A stretch of 64,000 nucleotides of DNA from Gemmatimonas sp. (GTDB taxonomy: Bacteria > Gemmatimonadota > Gemmatimonadetes > Gemmatimonadales > Gemmatimonadaceae), in contig JANNVQ010000029.1 of assembly GCA_031414535.1 (NCBI GenBank), forward strand, positions 1-64,000. Direction: 5' to 3'. Of this stretch, positions 27,871-38,771 are shown piece after piece. The position numbers were made by a program, and so were the translations under genes. The number at the start of each line of letters is the position of its first letter. Position 1 is the stretch's first letter. The notes below the pieces were generated by a model, which did not search any database, was not told where the DNA came from, and saw only the letters and a program-made list of their open reading frames with translations.

Positions 27871-28896
27871 ATGCGCATAAGGTTTTCACGCCACTCTGCT
27901 TCGCGTCTCGCTGCGCTCACGTTGTTCGCGGCCACTTCGCTCTCCTGCCGGGCGATTAGCCAACGCGCCACACCAGACACTGGCCTCAGCTCGGCGTATA
28001 CCGTCGCGCTCGGCTTCGATTCAGTCGGCCTTCGGGTTGTGCTTCCCCTGCAGAATGGCGAGGCGGCCGCGGCTCCGGCGTGGTTCGTGCTCCTCGAGAC
28101 TTCCGACGCTGAAGACGCGCGCCGACGCGGCATTCTTCATGTGCCGCGCCTAGGCGAGCTGCGCGGGTCCGCCGCCGTGCAGCGCGGGCGTTTCGAAGGC
28201 AACCGTCTCGTCGTGGAGTCGGGTGTCGACTTCTCCCCAGAGCGCCGTGTGGTCGTTGGGGCGGATGCGTTTCCCCCGACCAGCGCCGCGCCCGGCGCCA
28301 TCGGCCACGACGGGTACTCTCCGTATGTTGAGTTCCCCGACGGCATCGTACGCAACGTGCCGCTCATCGCCGACGCCGCGAGCCACGCGGATCGGGTGAT
28401 GCTCATCAATCGGGTGCAGGGTTGGGTGAGCATGCGCGTGACGCGCGGTTATGCCTCGGGTCGCACAGTCTGGTACGTCTCCACCGACGTCAGCGATCCC
28501 ATGGTCGCCGCAATCGAGGGCGCGACATTCGCACCGGCTCTCGCGAAGGCGGCGGCGGGAGCGGGCTCGGCGGACCTCGTCGCATTCGTGAACGGGCCAC
28601 GCGCCGCAGAAGATGCTGCCGAGCGCCATGGCATGCAGTCGGCGATGGCCGGCGAAGGCGATCCACTCAACATCCTTGCTGCCTTGCCCAACGAACCCTT
28701 GTACGCGCCGCTCTGGAACCTGCAGATGGCGATGTGGACGCCTCGTGCCGTCACCGATCGGCAGCGCGAACGCCTGCTGGGTTTCAATGAGGTGCGTGCT
28801 CGCATCGCGAACGGCCTCGCGGCGGGGATGGGAGCGGACGGCGCCCTCACGAACACGGGTGCGCTGGTGAACTGTCCTGTGGTGGCCTGGCGCTAA
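27871..28896 (+). CDS. Hypothetical secreted protein/lipoprotein
   Basis: Signal 'LSC'; 'WYVSTDVSD', 'YAPLW', C-terminal 'VNCPVV'. Confidence 0.65.
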   Translation: MRIRFSRHSASRLAALTLFAATSLSCRAISQRATPDTGLSSAYTVALGFDSVGLRVVLPLQNGEAAAAPAWFVLLETSDAEDARRRGILHVPRLGELRGSAAVQRGRFEGNRLVVESGVDFSPERRVVVGADAFPPTSAAPGAIGHDGYSPYVEFPDGIVRNVPLIADAASHADRVMLINRVQGWVSMRVTRGYASGRTVWYVSTDVSDPMVAAIEGATFAPALAKAAAGAGSADLVAFVNGPRAAEDAAERHGMQSAMAGEGDPLNILAALPNEPLYAPLWNLQMAMWTPRAVTDRQRERLLGFNEVRARIANGLAAGMGADGALTNTGALVNCPVVAWR

Positions 28897-28921: not shown

Positions 28922-29272
28922 CTACACGCGCGCGCCGAGTCCTTCGAGACTTCCTGCGAGCGCCGATCGCACCCGGTCGGGCGCCACGCCACGATGCGAT
29001 GCGTGCCAGAGCACCTTCCCATCCTCGATGATGAGGATCTGGGGAGACTCGTGGCGCACGCCGAGCCTCGCCTCGATGGCCTGCGAAAACGCGCGATTCG
29101 TGAAGACGTCCACGAGCTGAAGCTCGACGTCCTCCTCCTGGGAGAATTTGCCAAGTACGTGCTCGCTCCAACCGCAGAGTGAGCAGGTGGGTGAGTGCTT
29201 GTAGAGCACGGTCCGGCCGGGCTGGGCGATGAGATCGTCGACCGAGCTAAGGCGCAGTGGTACGATTGCCAT
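28922..29272 (-). CDS. YtxJ/BrxC-like thioredoxin-fold protein (DUF2847)
   Basis: 'YKHSPTCSLC', 'LGVRHESPQ', 'WHASH'. Confidence 0.85.
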   Translation of the reverse strand: MAIVPLRLSSVDDLIAQPGRTVLYKHSPTCSLCGWSEHVLGKFSQEEDVELQLVDVFTNRAFSQAIEARLGVRHESPQILIIEDGKVLWHASHRGVAPDRVRSALAGSLEGLGARV

Positions 29273-29284
29273 GTGCAAATTCTC

Positions 29285-30745
29285 CTATTGCCGCGCCCGA
29301 GGGCGAATATTTAGTGACCAGTCATACTCAGTGTCGACCCAACGAAACTCGCCGCTCCGCAGGAGTGCTTGTGCGGCCGGGTCGCTGACGTAGGGAGCCC
29401 AAAAACGCCCGACGCCGGCCAAGGTGTTCCCAAAGTCCTCACGGTACCATGTAAATATCGGCGAGCCGTAGACCGTTCGTGCCGCTACATCCACGCGGTT
29501 CTTGCCACGCGATGACAGAAAGCGCCGCGCCTGATCGTCGAGCTGCGCGCTGAGCCGCTCCGCCACGAACGCCTCATTGCGTAGCGGCGGGCAACCCAAC
29601 GCGGCACAAACTAACGCGACGTGAATGCGGGAATCCGAAAACTCCTTACGGATGATGACGTGCTCCACATCATCGAGCGTCAGCGTGCGCCCGTCCACGC
29701 GAACGATTGGCTCCGCCCAAGGGCTTCGGAACGTGACGCCAAACCGCTTGTTGATGTTGCGGATGGACCTCCGTTCGTTGCGGCTGTTGATGAGCTCGAT
29801 GGTGTACGCGTTGTACACATTGATCCAGAAAGCGAGCCGCTCATCATTCGGGAGCCGGCTGGGCGTCACGCGACCCAACGCTTGCAGGTAGGCCGGGAAG
29901 CGTGGATCGCGCTTGAACGCGTCGTAGTCCACGAGCCCATCGGTTACGTAGGCGGAGAGCATCGCCGACCACGGTCCGTGATCTACCGACTGTGCGTCCG
30001 CAGTACGCGTCGGCAGCACAACAGTCGCGGCGAGCGCGGCAATCCACCCCATCCGCTTGGCGAGCGTCGGTACGAACGACAGAGCAATCAACAGCGCTGC
30101 CGCAATCGCCACCTGCGTGAATGCCGCCGCGCGCGCGCCGTCCACACCAGCGAGGAGCGAATCGGCGAAGTACGTGTAGATAGCGGTGCCGGGCACGATG
30201 CCGAGGGCGGTGGACGCGATATACGTGGATGGCCGAACACCCGCGAGGCCCGCGCCGAAGTTGAGCGCATTGAACGGCACAATGGGAATCAAGCGTAGCC
30301 GAAGCAGGGGCAGGAAGGCCTTCGAGCCCGACAAAGAATCGAGCGCCGAGGCTCGCTTGCCGAGCAGTTGGCGCAAGGTCTCGCCACCGAGTGTGCGCGC
30401 CAAAAAGAACGCGCCGGTGGCCCCGAGCGTGGCGCCAAGCCAGTTCAACCCTGTTCCGGCAGCCGCGCCGAAGATTGCGCCGCCAGCGAGTGTGAGTGGC
30501 GTTCCCGGTAACCCGAGCGATGCGACGATGGCGTAGGTGAGCACGAATGCCGGGGCCGCCCATGGTAACTCTCGGGCGGCTCGCACGGCTTCGCCCAGCT
30601 TTGTGGGGTCTGCATAGGCCAGGAGACCGAGGCGGTCGGCGAGCAGGTAGGCACCGGCGATTACCGCCACGAGAATCGCGAGGCGTATAAGGCCTCGATT
30701 GCGGGGTGTCGCTTGAGTGGTGCTGGTTGTCTCGGTGGCGGACAT
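29285..30745 (-). CDS. VTT/TVP38 (DedA-like) membrane domain fused to DUF547
   Basis: 'LPGTPLTLAGG', 'LRLIPIVPFNALNF', 'GIVPGT'; then 'LAFWINVYNA', 'RIHVALVCAALGCPPL', 'YDWSLN'. Confidence 0.9.
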   Translation of the reverse strand: MSATETTSTTQATPRNRGLIRLAILVAVIAGAYLLADRLGLLAYADPTKLGEAVRAARELPWAAPAFVLTYAIVASLGLPGTPLTLAGGAIFGAAAGTGLNWLGATLGATGAFFLARTLGGETLRQLLGKRASALDSLSGSKAFLPLLRLRLIPIVPFNALNFGAGLAGVRPSTYIASTALGIVPGTAIYTYFADSLLAGVDGARAAAFTQVAIAAALLIALSFVPTLAKRMGWIAALAATVVLPTRTADAQSVDHGPWSAMLSAYVTDGLVDYDAFKRDPRFPAYLQALGRVTPSRLPNDERLAFWINVYNAYTIELINSRNERRSIRNINKRFGVTFRSPWAEPIVRVDGRTLTLDDVEHVIIRKEFSDSRIHVALVCAALGCPPLRNEAFVAERLSAQLDDQARRFLSSRGKNRVDVAARTVYGSPIFTWYREDFGNTLAGVGRFWAPYVSDPAAQALLRSGEFRWVDTEYDWSLNIRPRARQ

Positions 30746-30764
30746 GAGGTCGCGTCGGGGTCGA

Positions 30765-30790
30765 GTGAACTCTTTACAATGCCTGTGTCT
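30765..30790 (+). promoter_or_regulatory. ECF-type promoter GTGAACT-N13-GTGTCT (for the disulfide reductase)
   Basis: Same spacing as the sites at 33665 and 37323. Confidence 0.6.
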
Positions 30791-30812
30791 TGGAACTTGG
30801 TACACGCTGATA

Positions 30813-30838
30813 AGACTTGAGGCGGCCGAAAGATTCCA
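30813..30838 (-). promoter_or_regulatory. ECF-type promoter TGGAATC-N13-AAGTCT (for VTT-DUF547/ytxJ-like)
   Basis: Minus-strand match with identical spacing. Confidence 0.6.
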
Positions 30839-30870
30839 ACTCGGACGCAATTCCTTTCAATTACTTGCCA

Positions 30871-32304
30871 ATGCAGAGCATACCGGTTTACGACATCCTC
30901 GCCATCGGCGGTGGCACAGCCGGACTCGTCACGGCCGCTGGCGGCGCTGGCCTCGGCGCGCGCGTGGCGCTCGTGGAGCGGCATCGGATGGGTGGTGAGT
31001 GTCTGTGGAACGGCTGCGTTCCAAGCAAAGCCTTGATTGCCGCCGCGAAAGCCGCCCACCACGCGCGGTCCGCGCGTCGATTCGGCGTCGAGGTGGGTGA
31101 CGTGACCGTGCATCTGGAGGAAGCGCTCAACCACGTACGCCGCGTGCAAGACCGCATTGCCCCACACGATTCGCCTGAGCGATTTCGCGGACTCGGCGTG
31201 GATGTGCACGAGGGGCAGGCGCGCATCGTGGCGCCGGGCGAGGTCGAGGTGAACGGCAGGCGTCTGCGTGCCCGCCACATCGTGATCGCTACCGGGACTC
31301 GGCCGGCGGTACCGCCAATTCCCGGTCTCGCCGACGCGCCCTACCTCACGAACGAGAGCGTGTTTGACATCGCGGCGCTGCCGCGCACGCTCCTTGTGAT
31401 TGGCGGCGGGCCCATCGGTACGGAACTGGCGCAGGCGTTCGCGCGCCTCGGTAGCACGGTGCATGTCATTGAGGCGTTGCCGGACTTCTTTGCGCGCGAG
31501 GATCGCGAACTCGCCGCACTGTTGAAGGGCCAGTTGGAGGCCGAGGGCATTCGGTTCCACTTGGGCGCCAAGGCTACCGCCGTGCGCCACGTGGGCGGCG
31601 TCACGAGCGTGGACTTGCAGCGTGCCGACGGGACGACCGAATTACTTTCCGGCGACGCGCTTCTCGTGGCGGTAGGCCGTGCTCCGAACCTCGAGAATCT
31701 CGGGCTCGAAGCCGTTGGTGTCGCTACCGATCGCGGCGGAGTCATCACGGATGGGTACCTCCGCACCAATGTCCCGGGCATCTGGGCCGTCGGCGATATT
31801 GTGAGTGGTAGTCTCAAGTTCACGCACGCTGCCGACCATATGGCGCGCGGCTTGTTGCGCAACGCGTTGTTCCCGGGCAAGAGCCGTCTCGACTACTCGG
31901 CCCTGCCGTGGGTGACCTACACCGACCCTGAGCTCGCCCGCGTGGGGCTCACCGACACTGAGGCGCGTTCGCAGTACGGCGCTGGTGTCGGGGTGTGGCG
32001 GCGCGACGTGGGTGCGGTGGACCGAGTGATTGCCGATGCCGCGCCGGGCGGAATGGTGAAGATCGTGACTGACGCCAAGGGACGCGTGGTTGGCGGCCAC
32101 ATTCTTGGCCCGCACGCGGGCGATATGATTGGCGAACTCACCATCGCGCTGAAGTACAAGATGACTGTCGCGCAGATGGGCGCGGTGATTCACCCGTATC
32201 CAACGACCGCGGAGGCGGTGAAGCAAGCGGCAGAGATGCGGGTCAAGTCTACGTTCAGTGGCTGGAAGAAGTCGCTCGTGCGCTGGTTGGTGCGGCGGGT
32301 CTGA
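30871..32304 (+). CDS. Flavin pyridine-nucleotide disulfide oxidoreductase (dihydrolipoamide dehydrogenase/MerA-like family)
   Basis: 'IGGGTAG', 'GGECLWNGCVPSK', 'IGGGPIGTE', 'IHPYPTTAE'. Confidence 0.92.
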   Translation: MQSIPVYDILAIGGGTAGLVTAAGGAGLGARVALVERHRMGGECLWNGCVPSKALIAAAKAAHHARSARRFGVEVGDVTVHLEEALNHVRRVQDRIAPHDSPERFRGLGVDVHEGQARIVAPGEVEVNGRRLRARHIVIATGTRPAVPPIPGLADAPYLTNESVFDIAALPRTLLVIGGGPIGTELAQAFARLGSTVHVIEALPDFFAREDRELAALLKGQLEAEGIRFHLGAKATAVRHVGGVTSVDLQRADGTTELLSGDALLVAVGRAPNLENLGLEAVGVATDRGGVITDGYLRTNVPGIWAVGDIVSGSLKFTHAADHMARGLLRNALFPGKSRLDYSALPWVTYTDPELARVGLTDTEARSQYGAGVGVWRRDVGAVDRVIADAAPGGMVKIVTDAKGRVVGGHILGPHAGDMIGELTIALKYKMTVAQMGAVIHPYPTTAEAVKQAAEMRVKSTFSGWKKSLVRWLVRRV

Positions 32305-33658
32305 GGAGTGATACGAGAATGCCGGTGATGAAAATCAGCGGAATGCCGTACATCGCCCACGGCCAAGTGTAGCCGCCAGCCTCACCGACCACGACGAAGC
32401 ACCCCACGCCCCATATCACGCCCACCACCACACTGGCCCAAGCACCGGCCGCGGTGGCACGCGGCCAGTGGAACCCGGCGAGCAGTGCAAACGCGAGTGC
32501 CGCCACGGGGATGTTCGCGAGGATGAGTCGGTCGAGAATGTCGTCAACAAGAAAACTTCCGCCGAGCCAGCTCAGCAGCGCGAAGCCCGAGACGAGCGCG
32601 CGCTGAGCGCGGAGGCCGAGTCCGCGCTCGCCGATGAGATCGGCCGCCGCCATCGTACCCATCGCGCTCCAGACACCCGCAAGCGTCGTAAACGCCGCGC
32701 CGAGGAGCACGGCGAACCCCGCGCCTCGCAGACCAATCGGAAGCCAGCGGCGCAGCATCTCGGGAACGGCGAGCTGTGGGTCACTCAATTGCGGCAGCTC
32801 CACACGAAGCGCGGCGGCAGCCAGCACGATCATTGCATACAGGAGGAAAACCAATCCCGCGCTCCACGCCACCGCCCGGAACGCCGTCTGGTCGTCCTTG
32901 GCCGCAAAAATCTTCTGCCCGTACCACGGTGCCGCGATGTACGTGAAGCAGGTGAGCACCATCAATGTGACCACGAACCTTGTGGGCAACGCCGGGTGCG
33001 TCCACTGCGCAATGGGCGATACGCTGAATTGATCGGTGGGGAACACCGTCGCCAGTCCCTCAAGGCCGCCAACGCGCGTCCAGCCCACGGCGAGCAGCAC
33101 GGGGAAGAGCAGGGCCGCCGCCACAAATCCCGCGATGTCCGCGCGCACTACTGAGCGCAATCCGCCGGGCAGCACCGCGGCGAGGACCACCGCGGTGAGC
33201 ACTGCGCTGAGTGCCGGCGCCGGCCACGAGGGCAGAAACGGCTGAAACAAGAGCGTCATCGACTTCACGTACGTGGACGTGAAGCCGACCATCGCGAGCA
33301 GGAGCAGCACCGAGGCGCTGCGGCCGAGTGCCGGGGAGTAGCGGCGCGTGAACAGCTCGGCGACCGACAGTCGGTCAAAGCGCTTCCAAGCTCGAGCGAC
33401 AGTGAGCGTGTAGAACGCGAGTCCAACAAGGAATACGGCCGGAAGCGCCACCGCCATTGGCCCCGCCGCGTAGCCCGCCGCGGCAAACGCCAGCAGTGTG
33501 CTGGTGTTGAACTCGGTCATAACCAGCGTTGCAACCAACGGGAACAGCGTGAGGTCGCGCGAGGCCACTACGAAGTCCGAAGCGCTGGCCCGCTGGCGCG
33601 CGCCGGCAACAACAAAGAGAGCGACAACAGCCGCGAAGCCAGCCAGATCGATAATCAT
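32255..33658 (-). CDS. Sodium:solute symporter family transporter
   Basis: About 13 TMs; 'FVVASRDL', 'GGLRSVVRAD', 'QKIFAAKD'. Confidence 0.88.
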   Translation of the reverse strand: MIIDLAGFAAVVALFVVAGARQRASASDFVVASRDLTLFPLVATLVMTEFNTSTLLAFAAAGYAAGPMAVALPAVFLVGLAFYTLTVARAWKRFDRLSVAELFTRRYSPALGRSASVLLLLAMVGFTSTYVKSMTLLFQPFLPSWPAPALSAVLTAVVLAAVLPGGLRSVVRADIAGFVAAALLFPVLLAVGWTRVGGLEGLATVFPTDQFSVSPIAQWTHPALPTRFVVTLMVLTCFTYIAAPWYGQKIFAAKDDQTAFRAVAWSAGLVFLLYAMIVLAAAALRVELPQLSDPQLAVPEMLRRWLPIGLRGAGFAVLLGAAFTTLAGVWSAMGTMAAADLIGERGLGLRAQRALVSGFALLSWLGGSFLVDDILDRLILANIPVAALAFALLAGFHWPRATAAGAWASVVVGVIWGVGCFVVVGEAGGYTWPWAMYGIPLIFITGILVSLLRPAAPTSARATSSSH

Positions 33659-33664
33659 CAGCTT

Positions 33665-33690
33665 GGGAACTCTAATAGGGGGGGAGGTCT
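33665..33690 (+). promoter_or_regulatory. ECF-type promoter GGGAACT-N13-AGGTCT (for the TonB receptor)
   Basis: Both boxes identical to those at 37323-37348. Confidence 0.72.
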
Positions 33691-33723
33691 TGCCACCTAG
33701 GCGCAATCCGCCGCGCAGCCTTA

Positions 33724-33749
33724 TTACGTAGCTCTACCGTGCAGTTCCA
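33724..33749 (-). promoter_or_regulatory. ECF-type promoter TGGAACT-N13-ACGTAA (for the symporter)
   Basis: -35 matches; -10 is a variant at the same spacing. Confidence 0.5.
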
Positions 33750-33772
33750 CCACCAGCAAAGACCTGAACGCG

Positions 33773-36709
33773 ATGATTTGTTCTCTTTTCCGCTCGGCGA
33801 TTCTGCCGCTGACTCTCACCCTCGTGCTTCCGGCCGCCCTGGCTTCGCAGTCGGTGCCCAACGTTTCTGGCACCGTGCGCGCCCAGCGCGGCTCGCCGGT
33901 GGCCGATGCCACCGTGGCCGATGCCACCGTGGCCGATTCCGGCGGCGTCTCCGTGCGTACAGATAGCCAAGGCCGATTCGGCATCGCCGTGGGTGCTGGC
34001 GGAGCGCTTCTGCGCATCACCGCACCAGGCTTTGTCCCGGCCACCCTGCGCGTGGAGCCACTCGCCGAGGGCACCCGTCGTGAACTTGCGGTTGTGCTAG
34101 TGCCGCTGCCCTCACTTGAGGTGCGCCGGATTGTCGCGGCGCAGGCGCGCCCGCTGCTCGACACCGAAACCGCGACCACCGGTGGATCAATTGAGCGAGC
34201 AGAGATCGAGGCGCTCCCCACCGACGCGCGCGACCCAATCGCATTGCTCTACAACATTCCTGGTGTCACGCCGGCGACGGGGTTCTTTGGTGATGCCCCG
34301 CGGCTGTCGTTTAACGGTGGCAATGCGCTGTACTCGCAGTACCTACTCGATGGGTTGGACAACAACGAGGGATTTCTCGGTGGCCCTCGTGTTGATCTTC
34401 CGCTCGGCGCCATTGCACGCATTGATGCCTTGGTGAACACCTATGGGACTCGCTATGGTCGCAGTCCCGACGGCGTGGTGGATGTAACATCCGCCACCGG
34501 TAGTGATCGCTGGACCGGCGACCTCTTTGTGTATGATCGTCCCGGGCGCCCCTTTGACGCTCGCACGGCCACTCCATTCGGTGGCGCGAGTGAGGCCATC
34601 GCGCGGCGCCAGGAGGGATTCCAGCGAACGCAGCTAGGCGGCTCGCTGCGCGGTGCGCTGCATCCGGGGCGCACGTTCTTCGCCAGCGCGCTCGAACTCA
34701 CGCGAGAGGACGAGGATCGCATTGGCTCTACAGCGCTCGCTCAGTTCCTCGGCACTGAAACGCGCAGCACGTGGAAGGGATTCGCGCGCCTGGACCACGG
34801 GTGGAGCCCGACGCAAACGACGACGCTCCGAGTGGCGGCGAGCAATGTGGACCGTGCCGGCAACGGCAGCGGCGTCGTAACGCCTGAAGCTGACATCAGC
34901 ACGCGGCGCGTGGGTTCCCTCACGGCGCTGACGCATCGTTCGGCACTTCGTGGCCAACGAGCCATCAACACGGCGAGCGTCCAGTTCGGAACCTTTCATT
35001 GGTACTTTCCGCCTACTGAGAGCGACTTCTCACGCCCGCAGGTGACTGTGCTCACGCCGGGGCTCGCCACGCAGGCCGTGGTTGGCTCCAGCAACTTCAT
35101 TTTTGATGAGCGCGAGAATCAGCTCCAGCTGCGCGACGTGTTTGAGACAGCACTGGGCAAAGCACACACGCTACGAATTGGCGCAGACATCGTCGCCTCA
35201 CGCTTCGAGCTTGCGGCCGCGAGCAGCAATCCCAATGGCTCGTACGTCGTGATCAACAACGGTGATATTCCCGTCCCCACGGGACGGCCGCTGTCAATCG
35301 ACGATATCCCGGCAAGCGTCGAAGTCCAGAGCTACACGATTGATGCGAGACCACAGCAGGTGAACCTCTCGCAGACGCTCTACGGCGCATTTGTCGAGGA
35401 CACCTGGCGGCCAACGCCATCGCTTACGGTAATTGTCGGTCTGCGCTGGGACTACGATGACATCACGTCGCGGGGTGAGAGCGACCCAGACCTCGACAAC
35501 ATTCAGCCCCGCGTCTCGTTTAATTGGGTGCGCACGCCGCGCGATGTGCTGCGTGGCGGCGTGGGTCGTTACGCCGGCAAGTTTCCGTACGCCATCTTCT
35601 CCGATGCCATTCAGCTCGGCGCGTCTGGCAATGCAGTCGTGACGTACAGTGGCGCATCGGCACCGGCCTTTGATGCTGGCCCAAGGGCGGGAAGTGTTCC
35701 GCCAGGCGACATCACCTCGGTGCCGCGCGAGATCTTCCGCACGTTCGCACTCGGGCTCGAGCAGCCCATCAGCTGGCAGGGTACGCTCGGCTACCAGCGG
35801 CAGGTTGGCGCGCGCTGGGGGGTGTCCGCCGACGTGGTACTCAGCCGGACGCGCAATTTGCCCTGGCTCGCGGATTTGAATCCGATTTCGCGGCGACTCA
35901 CGGCCGCTGATTCCACGCCGCAGGTCTGCGCGAGCGCCACGAGCTGTCCGGGCGACTCCTTCCGCGCGGACGATCCAACGGCGTCGGGCTATCGCCGGCT
36001 CTCCACCGCGCAATCTGGCGGTACCGCTGAGTATGCCGCGCTCTACGTGGCCGCGCGCCACGATGTCAGTGACCGTTGGCAGCTCGATGCCAACTGGGTC
36101 TGGTCGCGCGCGCAGAACGATACCGAAGACATCAACTTCTCCGCCACGCAGGGCAACTGCTTCTCGACGGATCGTCGCGATGCCGTCACGGGTGACGCCT
36201 GCACGAGCGATGAATGGGGCGACGCTAACAACGACCGCCGGCATCGTCTCACCCTGCGCAGCGTCGCGCGGTTTTCACGGGGCCTCAACTGGAGTGTGAT
36301 TGCAGACGCGCAGACGGGCGTGCCGGTCAATCGCCTTGCCGGGACCGCCGATGCGAGCGGCACGGCGCGCTTCGATCTCCTCGGTAGCGGCCCCGTGCGT
36401 GGCAACTCGTTCATCGGGAACGCCGATCGTTTCTTTGGCGTGGCACGCAACGACGAGCGTCTGCCGGGCTCGCTCACCATCTCGATGTCGCTCGCGCAGC
36501 GCTTCGCGTTGCGCGGTGGTGCGCTGGAGGCGCGGGCAGACGTGTTCAATCTGCTCAATACCCTCGTATGGGGCGGATACGCCAACGGCATCGGCGGCGG
36601 AGGGAGTCGCCTGCAATACGGCCGGCCGGGCGATCCGACCTTCCTCTTTGCCGCTGCGCCAGCGCGGCAGTTTCAATTTTCGGCGCGCTACATCTTTGGC
36701 GGCGAGTAG
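33773..36709 (+). CDS. TonB-dependent receptor (Oar-like, N-terminal carboxypeptidase-regulatory-like domain)
   Basis: Signal peptide, plug 'YLLDGLDNN', 'GLRWDYD', 'DVFNLLN', C-terminal 'QFSARYIF'. Confidence 0.92.
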   Translation: MICSLFRSAILPLTLTLVLPAALASQSVPNVSGTVRAQRGSPVADATVADATVADSGGVSVRTDSQGRFGIAVGAGGALLRITAPGFVPATLRVEPLAEGTRRELAVVLVPLPSLEVRRIVAAQARPLLDTETATTGGSIERAEIEALPTDARDPIALLYNIPGVTPATGFFGDAPRLSFNGGNALYSQYLLDGLDNNEGFLGGPRVDLPLGAIARIDALVNTYGTRYGRSPDGVVDVTSATGSDRWTGDLFVYDRPGRPFDARTATPFGGASEAIARRQEGFQRTQLGGSLRGALHPGRTFFASALELTREDEDRIGSTALAQFLGTETRSTWKGFARLDHGWSPTQTTTLRVAASNVDRAGNGSGVVTPEADISTRRVGSLTALTHRSALRGQRAINTASVQFGTFHWYFPPTESDFSRPQVTVLTPGLATQAVVGSSNFIFDERENQLQLRDVFETALGKAHTLRIGADIVASRFELAAASSNPNGSYVVINNGDIPVPTGRPLSIDDIPASVEVQSYTIDARPQQVNLSQTLYGAFVEDTWRPTPSLTVIVGLRWDYDDITSRGESDPDLDNIQPRVSFNWVRTPRDVLRGGVGRYAGKFPYAIFSDAIQLGASGNAVVTYSGASAPAFDAGPRAGSVPPGDITSVPREIFRTFALGLEQPISWQGTLGYQRQVGARWGVSADVVLSRTRNLPWLADLNPISRRLTAADSTPQVCASATSCPGDSFRADDPTASGYRRLSTAQSGGTAEYAALYVAARHDVSDRWQLDANWVWSRAQNDTEDINFSATQGNCFSTDRRDAVTGDACTSDEWGDANNDRRHRLTLRSVARFSRGLNWSVIADAQTGVPVNRLAGTADASGTARFDLLGSGPVRGNSFIGNADRFFGVARNDERLPGSLTISMSLAQRFALRGGALEARADVFNLLNTLVWGGYANGIGGGGSRLQYGRPGDPTFLFAAAPARQFQFSARYIFGGE

Positions 36710-36718
36710 ATTCTCGCG

Positions 36719-37318
36719 ATGATTGATGAGCCCTTCCGAGCCTGGCTCGCGCGTGCCGCGAGCGCGCCCGTTCGCGGTATGCACGCCGCCGGCATCACGC
36801 CGAACGCCGTCACGGTCGCCGCGTTCGTACTGAGCGTTGCGGCCGTGCTGCCGATTGCGCGCGGAGAGTTCGCGCTCGGTATCGCATTCTGGCTCGCCGG
36901 GCGCCTGCTCGACGGCTACGATGGATTGCTGGCGAGAGTGTCGGGTCGCACTTCGCTCTTTGGCGGTTTCCTCGACATCTCGCTGGACATGTTGGCGTAC
37001 GCTGCGATGGCCGTTGCCTTCGCGTGGCAAATGCCCGCCAACCACGTGCTTTGGATGTTTGTGCTGGTGGGCTACATCGGCGTCATCACCACAACCCTTG
37101 CGTTATCGTCCCTGTTGGAGCGCGCCGACCGCCACCTCGGTGGCAACCGCTCGTTGCAGTTTACCCCCGGACTGGCTGAGGGGGGGGAGACAACGATTGC
37201 GTATGTCCTTGTTGCGTTGATGCCCGCCTGGACGCGCTGGGTGCTGACCGCGTGGATCCTGCTGTTGACCGTGACCGTGCTCGTGCGGATCCGCGCTGCA
37301 TATCGGCTGCTGCTCTGA
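36719..37318 (+). CDS. CDP-alcohol phosphatidyltransferase family protein (YnjF-like)
   Basis: 'TPNAVT', 'LLDGYDGLLAR...GGFLDISLD', 'GLAEGGET'. Confidence 0.9.
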   Translation: MIDEPFRAWLARAASAPVRGMHAAGITPNAVTVAAFVLSVAAVLPIARGEFALGIAFWLAGRLLDGYDGLLARVSGRTSLFGGFLDISLDMLAYAAMAVAFAWQMPANHVLWMFVLVGYIGVITTTLALSSLLERADRHLGGNRSLQFTPGLAEGGETTIAYVLVALMPAWTRWVLTAWILLLTVTVLVRIRAAYRLLL

Positions 37319-37322
37319 TGCC

Positions 37323-37348
37323 GGGAACTATCCCGAACCCGAAGGTCT
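37323..37348 (+). promoter_or_regulatory. Autoregulatory ECF promoter GGGAACT-N13-AGGTCT
   Basis: Ends 9 nt before the sigma GTG start. Confidence 0.72.
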
Positions 37349-37357
37349 ACCGGAAGA

Positions 37358-37945
37358 GTGACGTTTCCATCATCCGCGACATCATCGTTCGAGGCGCTCA
37401 CCCTACCGCACCTTAAGGCGGTAGCGCGTTACGCGCATTCGCTGACGCGCGAGGTCGCGGCGGCCGAGGACTTGGTGCAGGACACCTACCTCATCGCGGC
37501 CCAGAGCTGGCACACCTTCATTGCAGGCTCTGAGTGTCGGGCCTGGCTCTTCACCATCTGCCGGCACCGCTTCCTCCGCTCGCAGAAGCGCGAGCAGCGT
37601 CAAGAGCCCGTCGATGATGCGACGCTCGAGACGCTTGCAACTGCGCGCGGGCACGAGGCAGCGCGCGCGGATGGGCTGTCGGGGGCGTTTGAGCGACAGG
37701 AAGTGCTCGACGCGGTACAGGGCGCTATCGCTGCACTGCCCGAGGCGTATCGTGAGGTGGCCATCTTGGTGGATCTTCACGACAACAGTTACGAGTCCGC
37801 TGCTAGCATCCTTGGCGTCCCGGTGGGGACGGTACGATCCCGGCTCTTCCGCGCTCGTCGTTTGCTGCAGGAGCAACTGCTCACCCATGCGCGCGACCTC
37901 GGACTTGGCCGCGTCTCCAGTGCCATCAAGGAGATGTCACGATGA
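37358..37945 (+). CDS. ECF RNA polymerase sigma factor
   Basis: 'AEDLVQDTY', 'RAWLFTI', 'GVPVGTVRSRLFRARR'. Confidence 0.94.
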   Translation: MTFPSSATSSFEALTLPHLKAVARYAHSLTREVAAAEDLVQDTYLIAAQSWHTFIAGSECRAWLFTICRHRFLRSQKREQRQEPVDDATLETLATARGHEAARADGLSGAFERQEVLDAVQGAIAALPEAYREVAILVDLHDNSYESAASILGVPVGTVRSRLFRARRLLQEQLLTHARDLGLGRVSSAIKEMSR

Positions 37946-38208
37946 ATACAGGCCATAACCACGACGTTGACTGCAATGCCCTTGTCGCGCAACTCTGGGA
38001 CTACCTCGATGGTGAGTTGTCCACGGAGCACGTCGGCGCTTTGGAAATGCATCTCATGGCGTGCTCGCAGTGCTCCGGCCACGTTGAGTTCGAGCGTACA
38101 GTACTCGCAGCAATTCGCCAGGCTCGTACCGACGCCATCGATGCGGAGCGATTGACGTCACGGGTGCGTGGTGCGCTCGCCGCTGCTGGATTGTCAGACC
38201 CCCGCTGA
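37942..38208 (+). CDS. Soluble zinc-binding (zf-HC2/ZAS) anti-sigma factor
   Basis: 'C....LWDYLDGEL' and HxxxCxxC 'HLMACSQC'; no TM. Confidence 0.9.
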   Translation: MNTGHNHDVDCNALVAQLWDYLDGELSTEHVGALEMHLMACSQCSGHVEFERTVLAAIRQARTDAIDAERLTSRVRGALAAAGLSDPR

Positions 38209-38234
38209 AGCCCACACCCGTGAGAACGCATTCC

Positions 38235-38771
38235 ATGCCGTCACCCACTTCGATTCACGCCCCAACGCTGCATTTGCTGCTTGCCGCAGCACTGGTCCTT
38301 GCGGCTGCGCTGCCCACCACAGCACGGGCTCAAGTCGCGGCGGACGTACAGCGCGCGCCGCAGACGCAGCTCGGTCTCGGCCGCGGTCCAATCAATACCG
38401 ATACATCCGGCATTGCGCTGAAGGGTTACGATCCCGTGGCCTACCAGACGGCGTCGCAGGCCATGCTTGGGCTCGACTCACTCACGGCCGTGCATGATGG
38501 GGTGACGTACCGGTTTGCGAGCGCGGCCAACCGCGCGCTCTTCATTCAAGATCCAACGCGCTACACGCCCGCGTACGGCGGCTATTGCGCGATGGGAGTC
38601 GTCGGCGGCCGCAAGTTCGACATCGATCCGATGGCGTTCACTATCGTGGGCGGCCGACTCTACATGAACAAGGATATGCGCACGAGGACGATGTGGATGC
38701 GCGACATTCCTGGCTTTATCGGGCGCGCCGACACGAACTGGCCTCGCGCGCTCAGCCAGATGGGCTTCTAA
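38235..38771 (+). CDS. Secreted YHS-domain protein
   Basis: 'GYDPVAY', 'YRFASAANRALF..DP.RY.PAYGGYCAMG'. Confidence 0.88.
   Translation: MPSPTSIHAPTLHLLLAAALVLAAALPTTARAQVAADVQRAPQTQLGLGRGPINTDTSGIALKGYDPVAYQTASQAMLGLDSLTAVHDGVTYRFASAANRALFIQDPTRYTPAYGGYCAMGVVGGRKFDIDPMAFTIVGGRLYMNKDMRTRTMWMRDIPGFIGRADTNWPRALSQMGF

Follow-up and report, generated by a model that had tools for sequence, protein, structure and literature searches.

The window analysed here is a 64-kb stretch of DNA from a Gemmatimonas sp. genome (G000; 3.7 Mb, 64% G+C, 58 contigs, 98.4% complete), and the subject of this work is the block at its positions 28922-38771, in which genes for a sigma factor of the extracytoplasmic function (ECF) type and for a soluble zinc-finger anti-sigma factor stand next to a set of envelope and thiol-redox genes, with the same bipartite promoter-like motif before each transcription unit. 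The gene families were assigned with the Pfam and NCBIfam profiles against the family cutoffs, and both collections agree with the gene content proposed earlier by a model from the letters and open reading frames of this DNA (the sequence-only reading). The coordinates without a genome prefix refer to the window, and the genes and predicted promoters of the block, in the order of their positions, are as follows:

28922-29272 (-): YtxJ/BrxC-like thioredoxin-fold protein, 116 aa, ATG at 29272; Pfam BrxC 76.9 bits against a cutoff of 24.2
29285-30745 (-): DedA/VTT domain fused to DUF547, 486 aa, ATG at 30745; Pfam VTT_dom (PF09335) 81.5 (cutoff 33.9) and DUF547 89.6
30765-30790 (+): predicted ECF promoter of the disulfide reductase, GTGAACT-N13-GTGTCT; 80 nt from the end of the -10 box to the ATG
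30813-30838 (-): predicted ECF promoter of VTT-DUF547/brxC, TGGAATC-N13-AAGTCT, weak; 67 nt from the end of the -10 box to the ATG
30871-32304 (+): class I pyridine-nucleotide disulfide oxidoreductase, 477 aa; Pfam Pyr_redox_2 and Pyr_redox_dim
32255-33658 (-): divergent transporter of the sodium:solute symporter family, 467 aa, ATG at 33658; Pfam SSF 44.3 bits
33665-33690 (+): predicted ECF promoter of the TonB receptor operon, GGGAACT-N13-AGGTCT; 82 nt from the end of the -10 box to the ATG
33724-33749 (-): predicted ECF promoter of the symporter, TGGAACT-N13-ACGTAA, weak, with GTAA replacing GTCT; 65 nt from the end of the -10 box to the start
33773-36709 (+): TonB-dependent outer-membrane receptor, 978 aa; Pfam OMP_b-brl_4 (178 bits), CarboxypepD_reg, Plug and TonB_dep_Rec_b-barrel
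36719-37318 (+): CDP-alcohol phosphotransferase, 199 aa, 9 nt after the receptor gene; Pfam CDP-OH_P_transf 44.2 bits
37323-37348 (+): predicted ECF promoter of the sigma gene (autoregulatory), GGGAACT-N13-AGGTCT, within the 39 nt that separate the transferase gene from the sigma gene
37358-37945 (+): ECF sigma factor, 195 aa; Pfam Sigma70_r2 (residues 18-81) and Sigma70_r4_2 (118-170)
37942-38208 (+): soluble zinc-finger anti-sigma factor, 88 aa; Pfam zf-HC2 38.9 bits, with C11, H37, C41 and C44
38220-38771 (+): secreted member of a YHS-domain (seleno)protein family, 11 nt after the anti-sigma gene; NF041384 129.1 bits against a cutoff of 70

The common form of the five sites is [GT]GAA[CT]-N16-GT[CA][TA], where 16 nt separate a GGAAC-like pentamer from a GTCT-like tetramer, and every site is oriented toward its nearest gene. 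A bipartite motif with such a fixed spacing and an AAC-containing -35 box is the pattern of ECF promoters. The sequence-only reading had placed the motif at identical spacing before all five units and had considered both boxes of the sigma and TonB receptor sites to be the same, and direct reading of the DNA at each position bore out the two statements, with GGGAACT-N13-AGGTCT found at 37323 and at 33665. The sigma promoter is distinguished by its closeness to the gene: its GTCT ends 9 nt upstream of the GTG start, and in the form GGAAC[TC]-N15-GTCT it is kept in 4/4 genomes with the start codon 9-12 nt past the GTCT, so that the sigma mRNA would be leaderless or nearly so; all such promoter-to-start distances depend on the start codons chosen. 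The paired predicted promoters of both divergent regions face each other (30790-30813 and 33690-33724), with an alike layout in the same-genus genome G005, so that transcripts running in opposite directions would share about 10-20 nt at their 5' ends.

The motif was counted on all 58 contigs and both strands of G000. The strict 13-base motif has only 2 matches in the whole genome, both inside the block, and the relaxed form GAAC[TC]-N13-[AG]NGTCT has 21, 3 of them within these 7 kb; genome-wide, the motif is nearly confined to the block. A weight matrix, built from 20 sites taken exclusively from genomes other than G000 and then limited to the informative columns, was run over 7,387,052 positions of G000, and the receptor site ranked 1 (24.0 bits), the sigma site 2 (19.1 bits) and the reductase site 10 (16.9 bits). 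A matrix scan had been proposed with the sequence-only reading, and the present one recovered three of the sites at the top of the genome, but the VTT-DUF547 and symporter sites came out weak (the scores are given where the regulon is weighed). Each of these two is the top match on its own strand within its own intergenic region, and a match of at least 6.7 bits is expected by chance 0.086 times over the 478 positions that the two divergent regions comprise. The frequency of the motif was also checked against chance in four whole genomes (G000 and the same-genus G005, G008 and G015), where GGAAC-N16-GTCTTG has 10 matches, 8 of them in the orthologous blocks, versus 3 for the reversed-pattern control. 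The loose pattern GGAAY-N14-18-GTCT, counted in the window only, barely exceeds the shuffled sequences (8 matches versus a shuffle mean of 3.0, with 8 reached in 2/100 shuffles), and the number of sigma-70-type promoters in the block, 0 versus 1.4 expected, is uninformative for this phylum.

The conservation of the motif was followed in 25 genomes of the same genus, which were compared for VTT-DUF547 and for the sigma factor, in loci of more distant Gemmatimonadaceae that have both the cluster and the sigma gene (L045 and L047), and in loci that have the cluster without an adjacent sigma gene (L046, L048 and L068, of the genomes G041, G042 and G045, respectively); the sigma matches were collected in 41 genomes. 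The locus is divided over contig ends in G005 and G015, with the gene order kept, and the order is mostly kept in G008, while the succession of the sigma and anti-sigma genes is the same in G005, G008, G015, L045 and L047. In the intergenic alignments the boxes are kept and the spacers are divergent. Thus, the reductase promoter (GAAC.CTTT-N11-GT[CA]TTG) is kept in 5/5 aligned regions, the receptor promoter in 5/6 genomes, including G005, G015, L045 and L047, and the VTT-DUF547 promoter (GGAA[CT]-N16-GT[CA]T) in 4/5 regions, the fifth having decayed to GCAAC beside the VTT remnant of G008; the same-place VTT-DUF547 sites of G005, G015 and contig C4 of G008 read GGAAC-N16-GT[CA]TTG. Variants of the symporter promoter occur in 5/6 genomes, as [CT]GAAC-N16-GTAT in G005 and G015 and as GAAAC-N16-GTCTTGC in L045 and L047, and in G005 and G008 a separate GGAAC-N16-GTCTTG promoter precedes the YHS genes. 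In L045 and L047 the start of the sigma gene and the stop codon of the transferase gene overlap and the motif stands before the receptor gene, giving a receptor-transferase-sigma-anti-sigma operon, and the motif is additionally found upstream of a second reductase.

A rearrangement is seen in G008, where a 47-residue VTT-DUF547 remnant lies beside the reductase gene (L033:8576-8716) and the intact VTT-DUF547 gene is on another contig (L035:7931-11109), where it diverges from a further anti-sigma-YHS pair, which lacks a sigma gene. The relocated region has retained both promoters.

Among the 25 same-genus genomes, VTT-DUF547 was found only in G000, G005, G008 and G015, and the top three sigma matches outside G000 (59-62% identity) belong to G005, G008 and G015, which are exactly the holders of VTT-DUF547. 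The gene-neighbourhood comparison proposed with the sequence-only reading revealed synteny of the receptor-CDP-alcohol transferase pair, the symporter, the reductase and VTT-DUF547 in nine Gemmatimonadaceae genomes, and a functional link among the cluster genes is therefore supported. No motif site was found upstream of any cluster gene in L046, L048 and L068, of which L046 and L048 have very short divergent intergenic regions, and the best sigma matches in their genomes are 41% for G041, 49% for G042 and none for G045. The motif goes with the sigma factor, since it was found in 6/6 cluster genomes with the sigma ortholog and in 0/3 without it. Because these sister genomes hold the cluster without both sigma and motif, the target cluster is older than its regulation, and the sigma factor is an add-on regulator instead of an integral part of the module. 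Computation supports the reading as a regulon well, and the block would represent a switch of the SigR/RsrA-like kind that was recruited, in part of the Gemmatimonadaceae, to a conserved and uncharacterised envelope/redox cluster.

The sigma factor consists of the sigma-2 and sigma-4 regions, with no further Pfam domain, exceeds the cutoff of the general model TIGR02937 sigma70-ECF (76.3 vs 42.9) and has SigH of M. tuberculosis as its best match in the PDB (5zx2, E 5.9e-22). The anti-sigma gene overlaps the sigma stop codon with its start (ATGA), and its product is best matched in the PDB by RsrA of S. coelicolor (5frf, E 4.8e-4), with C11, H37 and C44 aligned and C41 placed at the position shown as Ser in the crystallised RsrA variant; these four residues are kept in 8/8 relatives, and no hydrophobic segment was found from the sequence of the 88-aa protein. 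By sequence, the pair is SigH/RsrA-like, and the RsrA-like residues make a thiol signal plausible. The comparative data agree with the claim of the sequence-only reading that one ECF sigma factor, one soluble HxxxCxxC anti-sigma factor and a shared promoter motif, including the promoter of sigma itself, belong together.

The known systems most similar to the pair are SigR-RsrA of Streptomyces coelicolor and SigH-RshA of M. tuberculosis (ECF12, responding to thiol-oxidative stress), with which it shares the soluble zinc anti-sigma factor with the C11/H37/C41/C44 positions, the overlapping sigma and anti-sigma genes, the predicted autoregulation and thiol-redox proteins among the targets. The SigR/SigH consensus is GGAAT-N18-GTT, whereas the motif here is GGAAC-N16-GT(C/A)T; the host, unlike a mycothiol-making actinobacterium, is a member of the Gemmatimonadaceae with bacillithiol synthesis (BshC), and the target set is small, with the envelope genes predominating over thioredoxin genes. 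Switches made of an ECF sigma factor and a zinc anti-sigma factor are textbook knowledge, and the prediction of regulons from conserved promoters is routine. Surface signalling of the FecI-FecR-FecA type was considered and rejected: as in that system, the ECF sigma gene adjoins the TonB receptor gene that it is predicted to induce, but no STN signalling domain was found on the receptor with Pfam, and a soluble 88-aa zf-HC2 protein is encoded in place of the FecR-type transmembrane protein. In the main text and a portion of the supplement of the ECF reclassification paper, Gemmatimonadetes are listed only under ECF19, ECF25s4, ECF41, ECF56 and ECF248, and neither DUF547 nor YHS is mentioned there.

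Two paralogous sigma genes of 50-51% identity are present elsewhere in the genome (G000:C2:54032-54568, minus strand, and G000:C10:22403-22945, plus strand); an RsrA-like zinc anti-sigma gene comes after each of them, and upstream of the C10 paralog stands GGAACC-N16-CGTATA (15.3 bits, rank 22 in the matrix). All 41 genomes searched contain paralogs at 39-51% identity, and the SigH/RsrA-like pairs are a lineage-specific expansion.

Accounting for these observations, the block is probably a small regulon of the SigH/SigR-like ECF sigma factor, which is likely held by the RsrA-like anti-sigma factor and predicted to be released on thiol oxidation or modification. In such a mechanism the oxidation or modification of the anti-sigma cysteines would free sigma, the free sigma would direct RNA polymerase to the motif promoters, and it would amplify itself both from its near-leaderless own promoter and by read-through from the receptor operon. 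The thiol-redox set induced in this way would comprise the NAD(P)H disulfide reductase, the CxxC YtxJ-like protein and the periplasmic Cys-type YHS protein. On the side of the envelope, solute import would be the task of the TonB receptor and the sodium-symporter-family transporter, the CDP-alcohol phosphotransferase would link a lipid to an alcohol head group, and the YdjX-type DedA domain would flip this lipid toward the periplasmic DUF547.

One more strong copy of the motif (GGGAACT...GGGTCTCT) lies outside the window, at G000:C38:128665-128689 on the minus strand, before the gene of a DM13-domain lipoprotein (PF10517, 'electron transfer DM13'). The full matrix puts this site at rank 1 and the reduced matrix puts it at rank 14, and among the orthologs it reads GGAAC-N16-GTCTTG in G005 and GGAAC, N16 and then GACT or GCCT in G015, G043 and G044; no ortholog of the lipoprotein was found in G008. 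The DM13 lipoprotein gene is likely a sixth, unlinked member of the predicted regulon. The regulon had been described by the sequence-only reading as self-contained, which does not fully hold in view of this unlinked gene, carrying the motif in G000 as well as in G005.

As for the redox genes, the YtxJ-like protein has a CxxC motif in the form T-C-S-L-C and scores slightly under the cutoff of TIGR04019 (75.5 vs 77.25). The brxC-like gene lies 12 nt downstream of VTT-DUF547, with which it is probably co-transcribed, and has the same place after vtt in G005. It may be compared with BrxC (YtxJ) of Bacillus subtilis, described as a monothiol bacilliredoxin (PMC8113031): the Pfam BrxC domain is above its cutoff and BshC is present in G000, but the active site here is a CxxC pair and not a single Cys. 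Since BshC exceeds its cutoff in G000 (275 vs 265.8) and no glutathione synthetase was found above cutoff there, bacillithiol is likely the low-molecular-weight thiol of this organism. Next to the brxC-like gene, between it and a phosphoribosyltransferase-like gene, is a DUF7482 gene (27871-28896, plus strand), which has no match in the G005 and G015 loci and, therefore, looks like a G000-specific insertion and is excluded from the system.

The reductase carries the redox motif C-LWNG-C, has no C-terminal Cys pair and, by Pfam, no NmerA/HMA domain. Its best NCBIfam match is NF004991 (511.6 bits, under the cutoff of 620), and its PDB neighbours Lpd, MerA and glutathione reductase are equidistant, all at about 1e-70. 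The candidate identity of mercuric reductase MerA was rejected on the score (366 against the TIGR02053 cutoff of 454.45), the NmerA domain and the C-terminal Cys pair. The reductase (plus strand) and symporter (minus strand) genes are convergent and overlap by 50 nt at the 3' coding ends (32255-32304). The YHS protein is of the Cys form (GGYCAMG) with no in-frame TGA, has a signal peptide as read from the sequence, and is predicted to be periplasmic.

The linker between the two halves of VTT-DUF547 resembles a signal peptide (KRMGWIAALAATVVLPTRTADA/QS), so the DUF547 domain is predicted to be periplasmic. The relatives of the VTT half at 57-85% identity are named YdjX (TVP38/TMEM64 family) by the Joint Genome Institute, and by these names of relatives, not by a COG model, the DedA half is of the YdjX/TVP38 type. 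The fusion itself was seen only in Gemmatimonadaceae-labelled records, the related database records being labelled as Gemmatimonadaceae metagenome-assembled genomes. A published survey (PMC10127716) reports disulfide-reductase domains as the commonest fusion partners of DedA, with the function given as unknown. The DedA (COG0398, YdjX/TVP38)-reductase pairs are comparable with the VTT/DedA gene found here divergent from a class I disulfide reductase gene, but the two genes are separate in the block, with twin overlapping promoters and under predicted ECF sigma control, and the DedA domain is fused to DUF547. The claim of the sequence-only reading that the assembly is undescribed is accordingly to be narrowed, because the DedA/disulfide-reductase pairing stands already in print in that survey.

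The AlphaFold2 model of the DUF547 domain (29288-30040, minus strand) is of high score (predicted local distance difference test 92.7, predicted TM-score 0.88). No solved structural relative was obtained with it: E was 0.81 for the top Foldseek match in the PDB, and a wide VIA-align comparison reached at most Z 5.3 (over 94-103 residues), the noise level for helical proteins. Among the residues invariant in 35 sequences are AFWINVYN, an Arg, a His, D-F and W-x-L-N. A C-x4-C pair, though common in these 35 sequences, is not shared by all of them, and the candidate role of DUF547 as a thiol-redox domain was dropped. No functional study of DUF547 was among the full-text matches listed.

The receptor begins with a carboxypeptidase-regulatory-like domain. 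The CDP-alcohol phosphotransferase has an intact catalytic motif, D-G-x2-D-G-x2-A-R...G-x3-D-x3-D. It is matched best by 6h53 in the PDB (E 6.7e-7) and only by generic CDP-alcohol phosphatidyltransferase clusters in the ESM Atlas. The nearest families are archaetidylinositol-phosphate (AIP) synthase NF040950 (67.2, cutoff 180) and phosphatidylinositol-phosphate (PIP) synthase NF045883 (50.9, cutoff 170). An inositol-lipid assignment of this enzyme was not adopted, as it is far below the PIP/AIP synthase cutoffs, and a search of the genome, which is 98.4% complete, found no inositol-1-phosphate synthase (PF01658).

Related neighbourhoods were found elsewhere around DUF547. In 14 of the 78 DUF547-centred loci the fetched flanks hold TIGR04283 and/or TIGR04282 genes, named by NCBI as arsenosugar-biosynthesis transferases, and four of the 14 are Gemmatimonadaceae VTT-DUF547 loci. 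Stand-alone DUF547 genes directly adjoin TIGR04283/TIGR04282 genes in L091, L096, L097, L106, L107, L114 and others, and the DUF547 loci L110 and L112 include a radical S-adenosylmethionine (SAM) gene and a metallophosphoesterase gene as well. In G028, of another family of the order (L038:1-8710, G028:C132), a sigma gene truncated where the contig ends and an RsrA-like anti-sigma gene are followed by seven same-strand genes, which encode a radical SAM protein, a metallophosphoesterase, a symporter, an NrtS-like open reading frame, an NF004991 reductase (750.8 bits, cutoff 620), a DedA-TIGR04283 fusion and TIGR04282; GGAAC-N16-GAGTTAG stands just past the anti-sigma gene. DUF547, the NF004991-type reductase and DedA recur in the TIGR04282/TIGR04283 clusters of other lineages, and that of G028 follows a related sigma/anti-sigma pair, while in G000 the place of these transferases is taken by the TonB receptor, the CDP-alcohol transferase and the symporter.

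One hypothesis drawn from these neighbourhoods is that a conserved reductase-DedA-DUF547 core works with alternative cytoplasmic lipid-head-group enzymes, which fits a scheme of building, flipping and using a lipid-linked group. In its full form, which appears rather improbable at present, the reductase-DedA(YdjX)-DUF547 core would be a redox-gated pathway for the decoration of envelope lipids, with the RsrA-like thiol switch turning all of it on. An enzyme of the cytoplasmic face would make a lipid-linked head group from the solute delivered by the receptor and the symporter, this enzyme being the CDP-alcohol phosphotransferase here and the TIGR04282/TIGR04283 transferases, once fused to DedA, in the sister lineages; DedA would then flip the lipid, and the periplasmic DUF547 would process or transfer it.

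Several findings weigh against the block being one thiol-controlled regulon of its sigma factor. The VTT-DUF547 and symporter sites score only 6.7 and 7.0 bits in G000, where 1,328 positions reach at least 6.7 bits, so that genome-wide these two weak sites are undistinguished, and in G008 the receptor site and the symporter site (CGAAC-N16-GGAT) have a GGAT -10 box in place of GT(C/A)T. The 6-versus-3 co-occurrence does not amount to six independent events, because the genomes compared are close kin. The sigma factor is under the cutoff of TIGR02947 SigH_actino (97.7 vs 251.55) and the anti-sigma factor under that of the RsrA model TIGR03988 (43.9 vs 62.5), and the pair is a relative of SigR/RsrA and not a member of the actinobacterial equivalogs; moreover, some zinc anti-sigma factors are not redox sensors. 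Cross-recognition is possible, since at least two paralogous sigma/RsrA-like pairs exist in G000, one of them with a similar promoter. A search for sequencing runs that contain this DNA gave two DNA metagenome runs of one study and no RNA run. The start sites, induction and sigma dependence of the five units are predictions, and the target functions are presumed from family membership, with the symporter matching TIGR00813 at the superfamily level only (50.4 bits) and the transferase falling below the cutoff of every named family. As to the single regulon claimed by the sequence-only reading, the motif, the matrix, the synteny and the 6-versus-3 split speak for it, and the two weak sites, the DM13 gene outside the block and the occurrence of the cluster also without sigma call for its correction in these points.

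The regulon may be the same and the signal a different one, namely a metal or metalloid (an arsenic or selenium species, or other soft metal) that would bind or attack the Cys/His site of the anti-sigma factor, with targets that would import the element, reduce it and park it in a lipid or sugar conjugate. This explanation, unlikely but worth keeping in view, is consistent with the selenocysteine members of the YHS family NF041384, with a reductase about as near to MerA as to lipoamide dehydrogenase, with the 'arsenosugar' transferase genes of 14/78 DUF547 loci, and with the G028 operon, in which the related sigma/anti-sigma pair heads genes for the radical SAM protein, the phosphoesterase, the reductase subfamily, DedA-TIGR04283 and TIGR04282. 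However, none of the arsenosugar families is above cutoff in G000 (ArsS best 33.1, cutoff 300; TIGR04283 best 88.8, cutoff 182; TIGR04282 no match), the G028 radical SAM protein itself reaches 51.8 bits against the ArsS cutoff of 300, and the reductase is under the MerA cutoff and lacks the C-terminal Cys pair and NmerA domain of MerA. The arsenosugar names of the two transferase families are association-based, and no experimental paper on TIGR04282 or TIGR04283 was found in the literature listing.

It may also be asked which sigma factor serves the promoters, and whether they are promoters at all. It is decidedly unlikely that these are genuine ECF promoters which depend chiefly or additionally on one of the sigma paralogs of this lineage-specific family: the C2:54032 and C10:22403 paralogs do each have an RsrA-like partner gene and the site before the C10 copy does fit the matrix, but the cluster motif tracks the adjacent ortholog (at least 54% identity) and not the paralogs, which are present also in G041 and G042, where the cluster lacks the motif, and only one match in the genome scores above the promoter of the sigma gene itself. 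Still further down, as very improbable, stands the explanation of the motif by chance likeness or by another DNA-binding protein, with the genes not co-regulated. The weakness of two of the five sites and the modest excess of the loose pattern in the window would agree with it, but the strict motif is unique to the block, a matrix from other genomes gives the ranks 1, 2 and 10, the boxes are kept between divergent spacers, the orientation and start-codon distance are right at 5/5 sites, the motif was kept after the relocation of the VTT-DUF547 gene in G008, and the fixed spacing with the AAC -35 box is that of ECF promoters. The regulon of the adjacent SigH/SigR-like sigma factor with a thiol signal is, therefore, preferred as the probable explanation of the block.

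If the lipid-decoration pathway were true, it would give the first function for DUF547, for the widespread DedA-reductase partnership and for the 'arsenosugar-associated' transferases, and it would offer a candidate for the unknown enzyme making sugar-type, possibly arsenic-bearing, phospholipids. The predicted sigma/promoter pair may serve as an orthogonal one, movable into a model host for expression of the module. For the family, the predicted regulon would provide a regulatory handle on YdjX-type DedA with its reductase, on DUF547, on the YHS (seleno)protein family and on an orphan TonB-coupled transferase, and the presence of the module with and without sigma in sister genomes makes a natural comparison. 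If the switch is thiol-responsive, diamide or oxidant stress would be the condition where these genes should respond.

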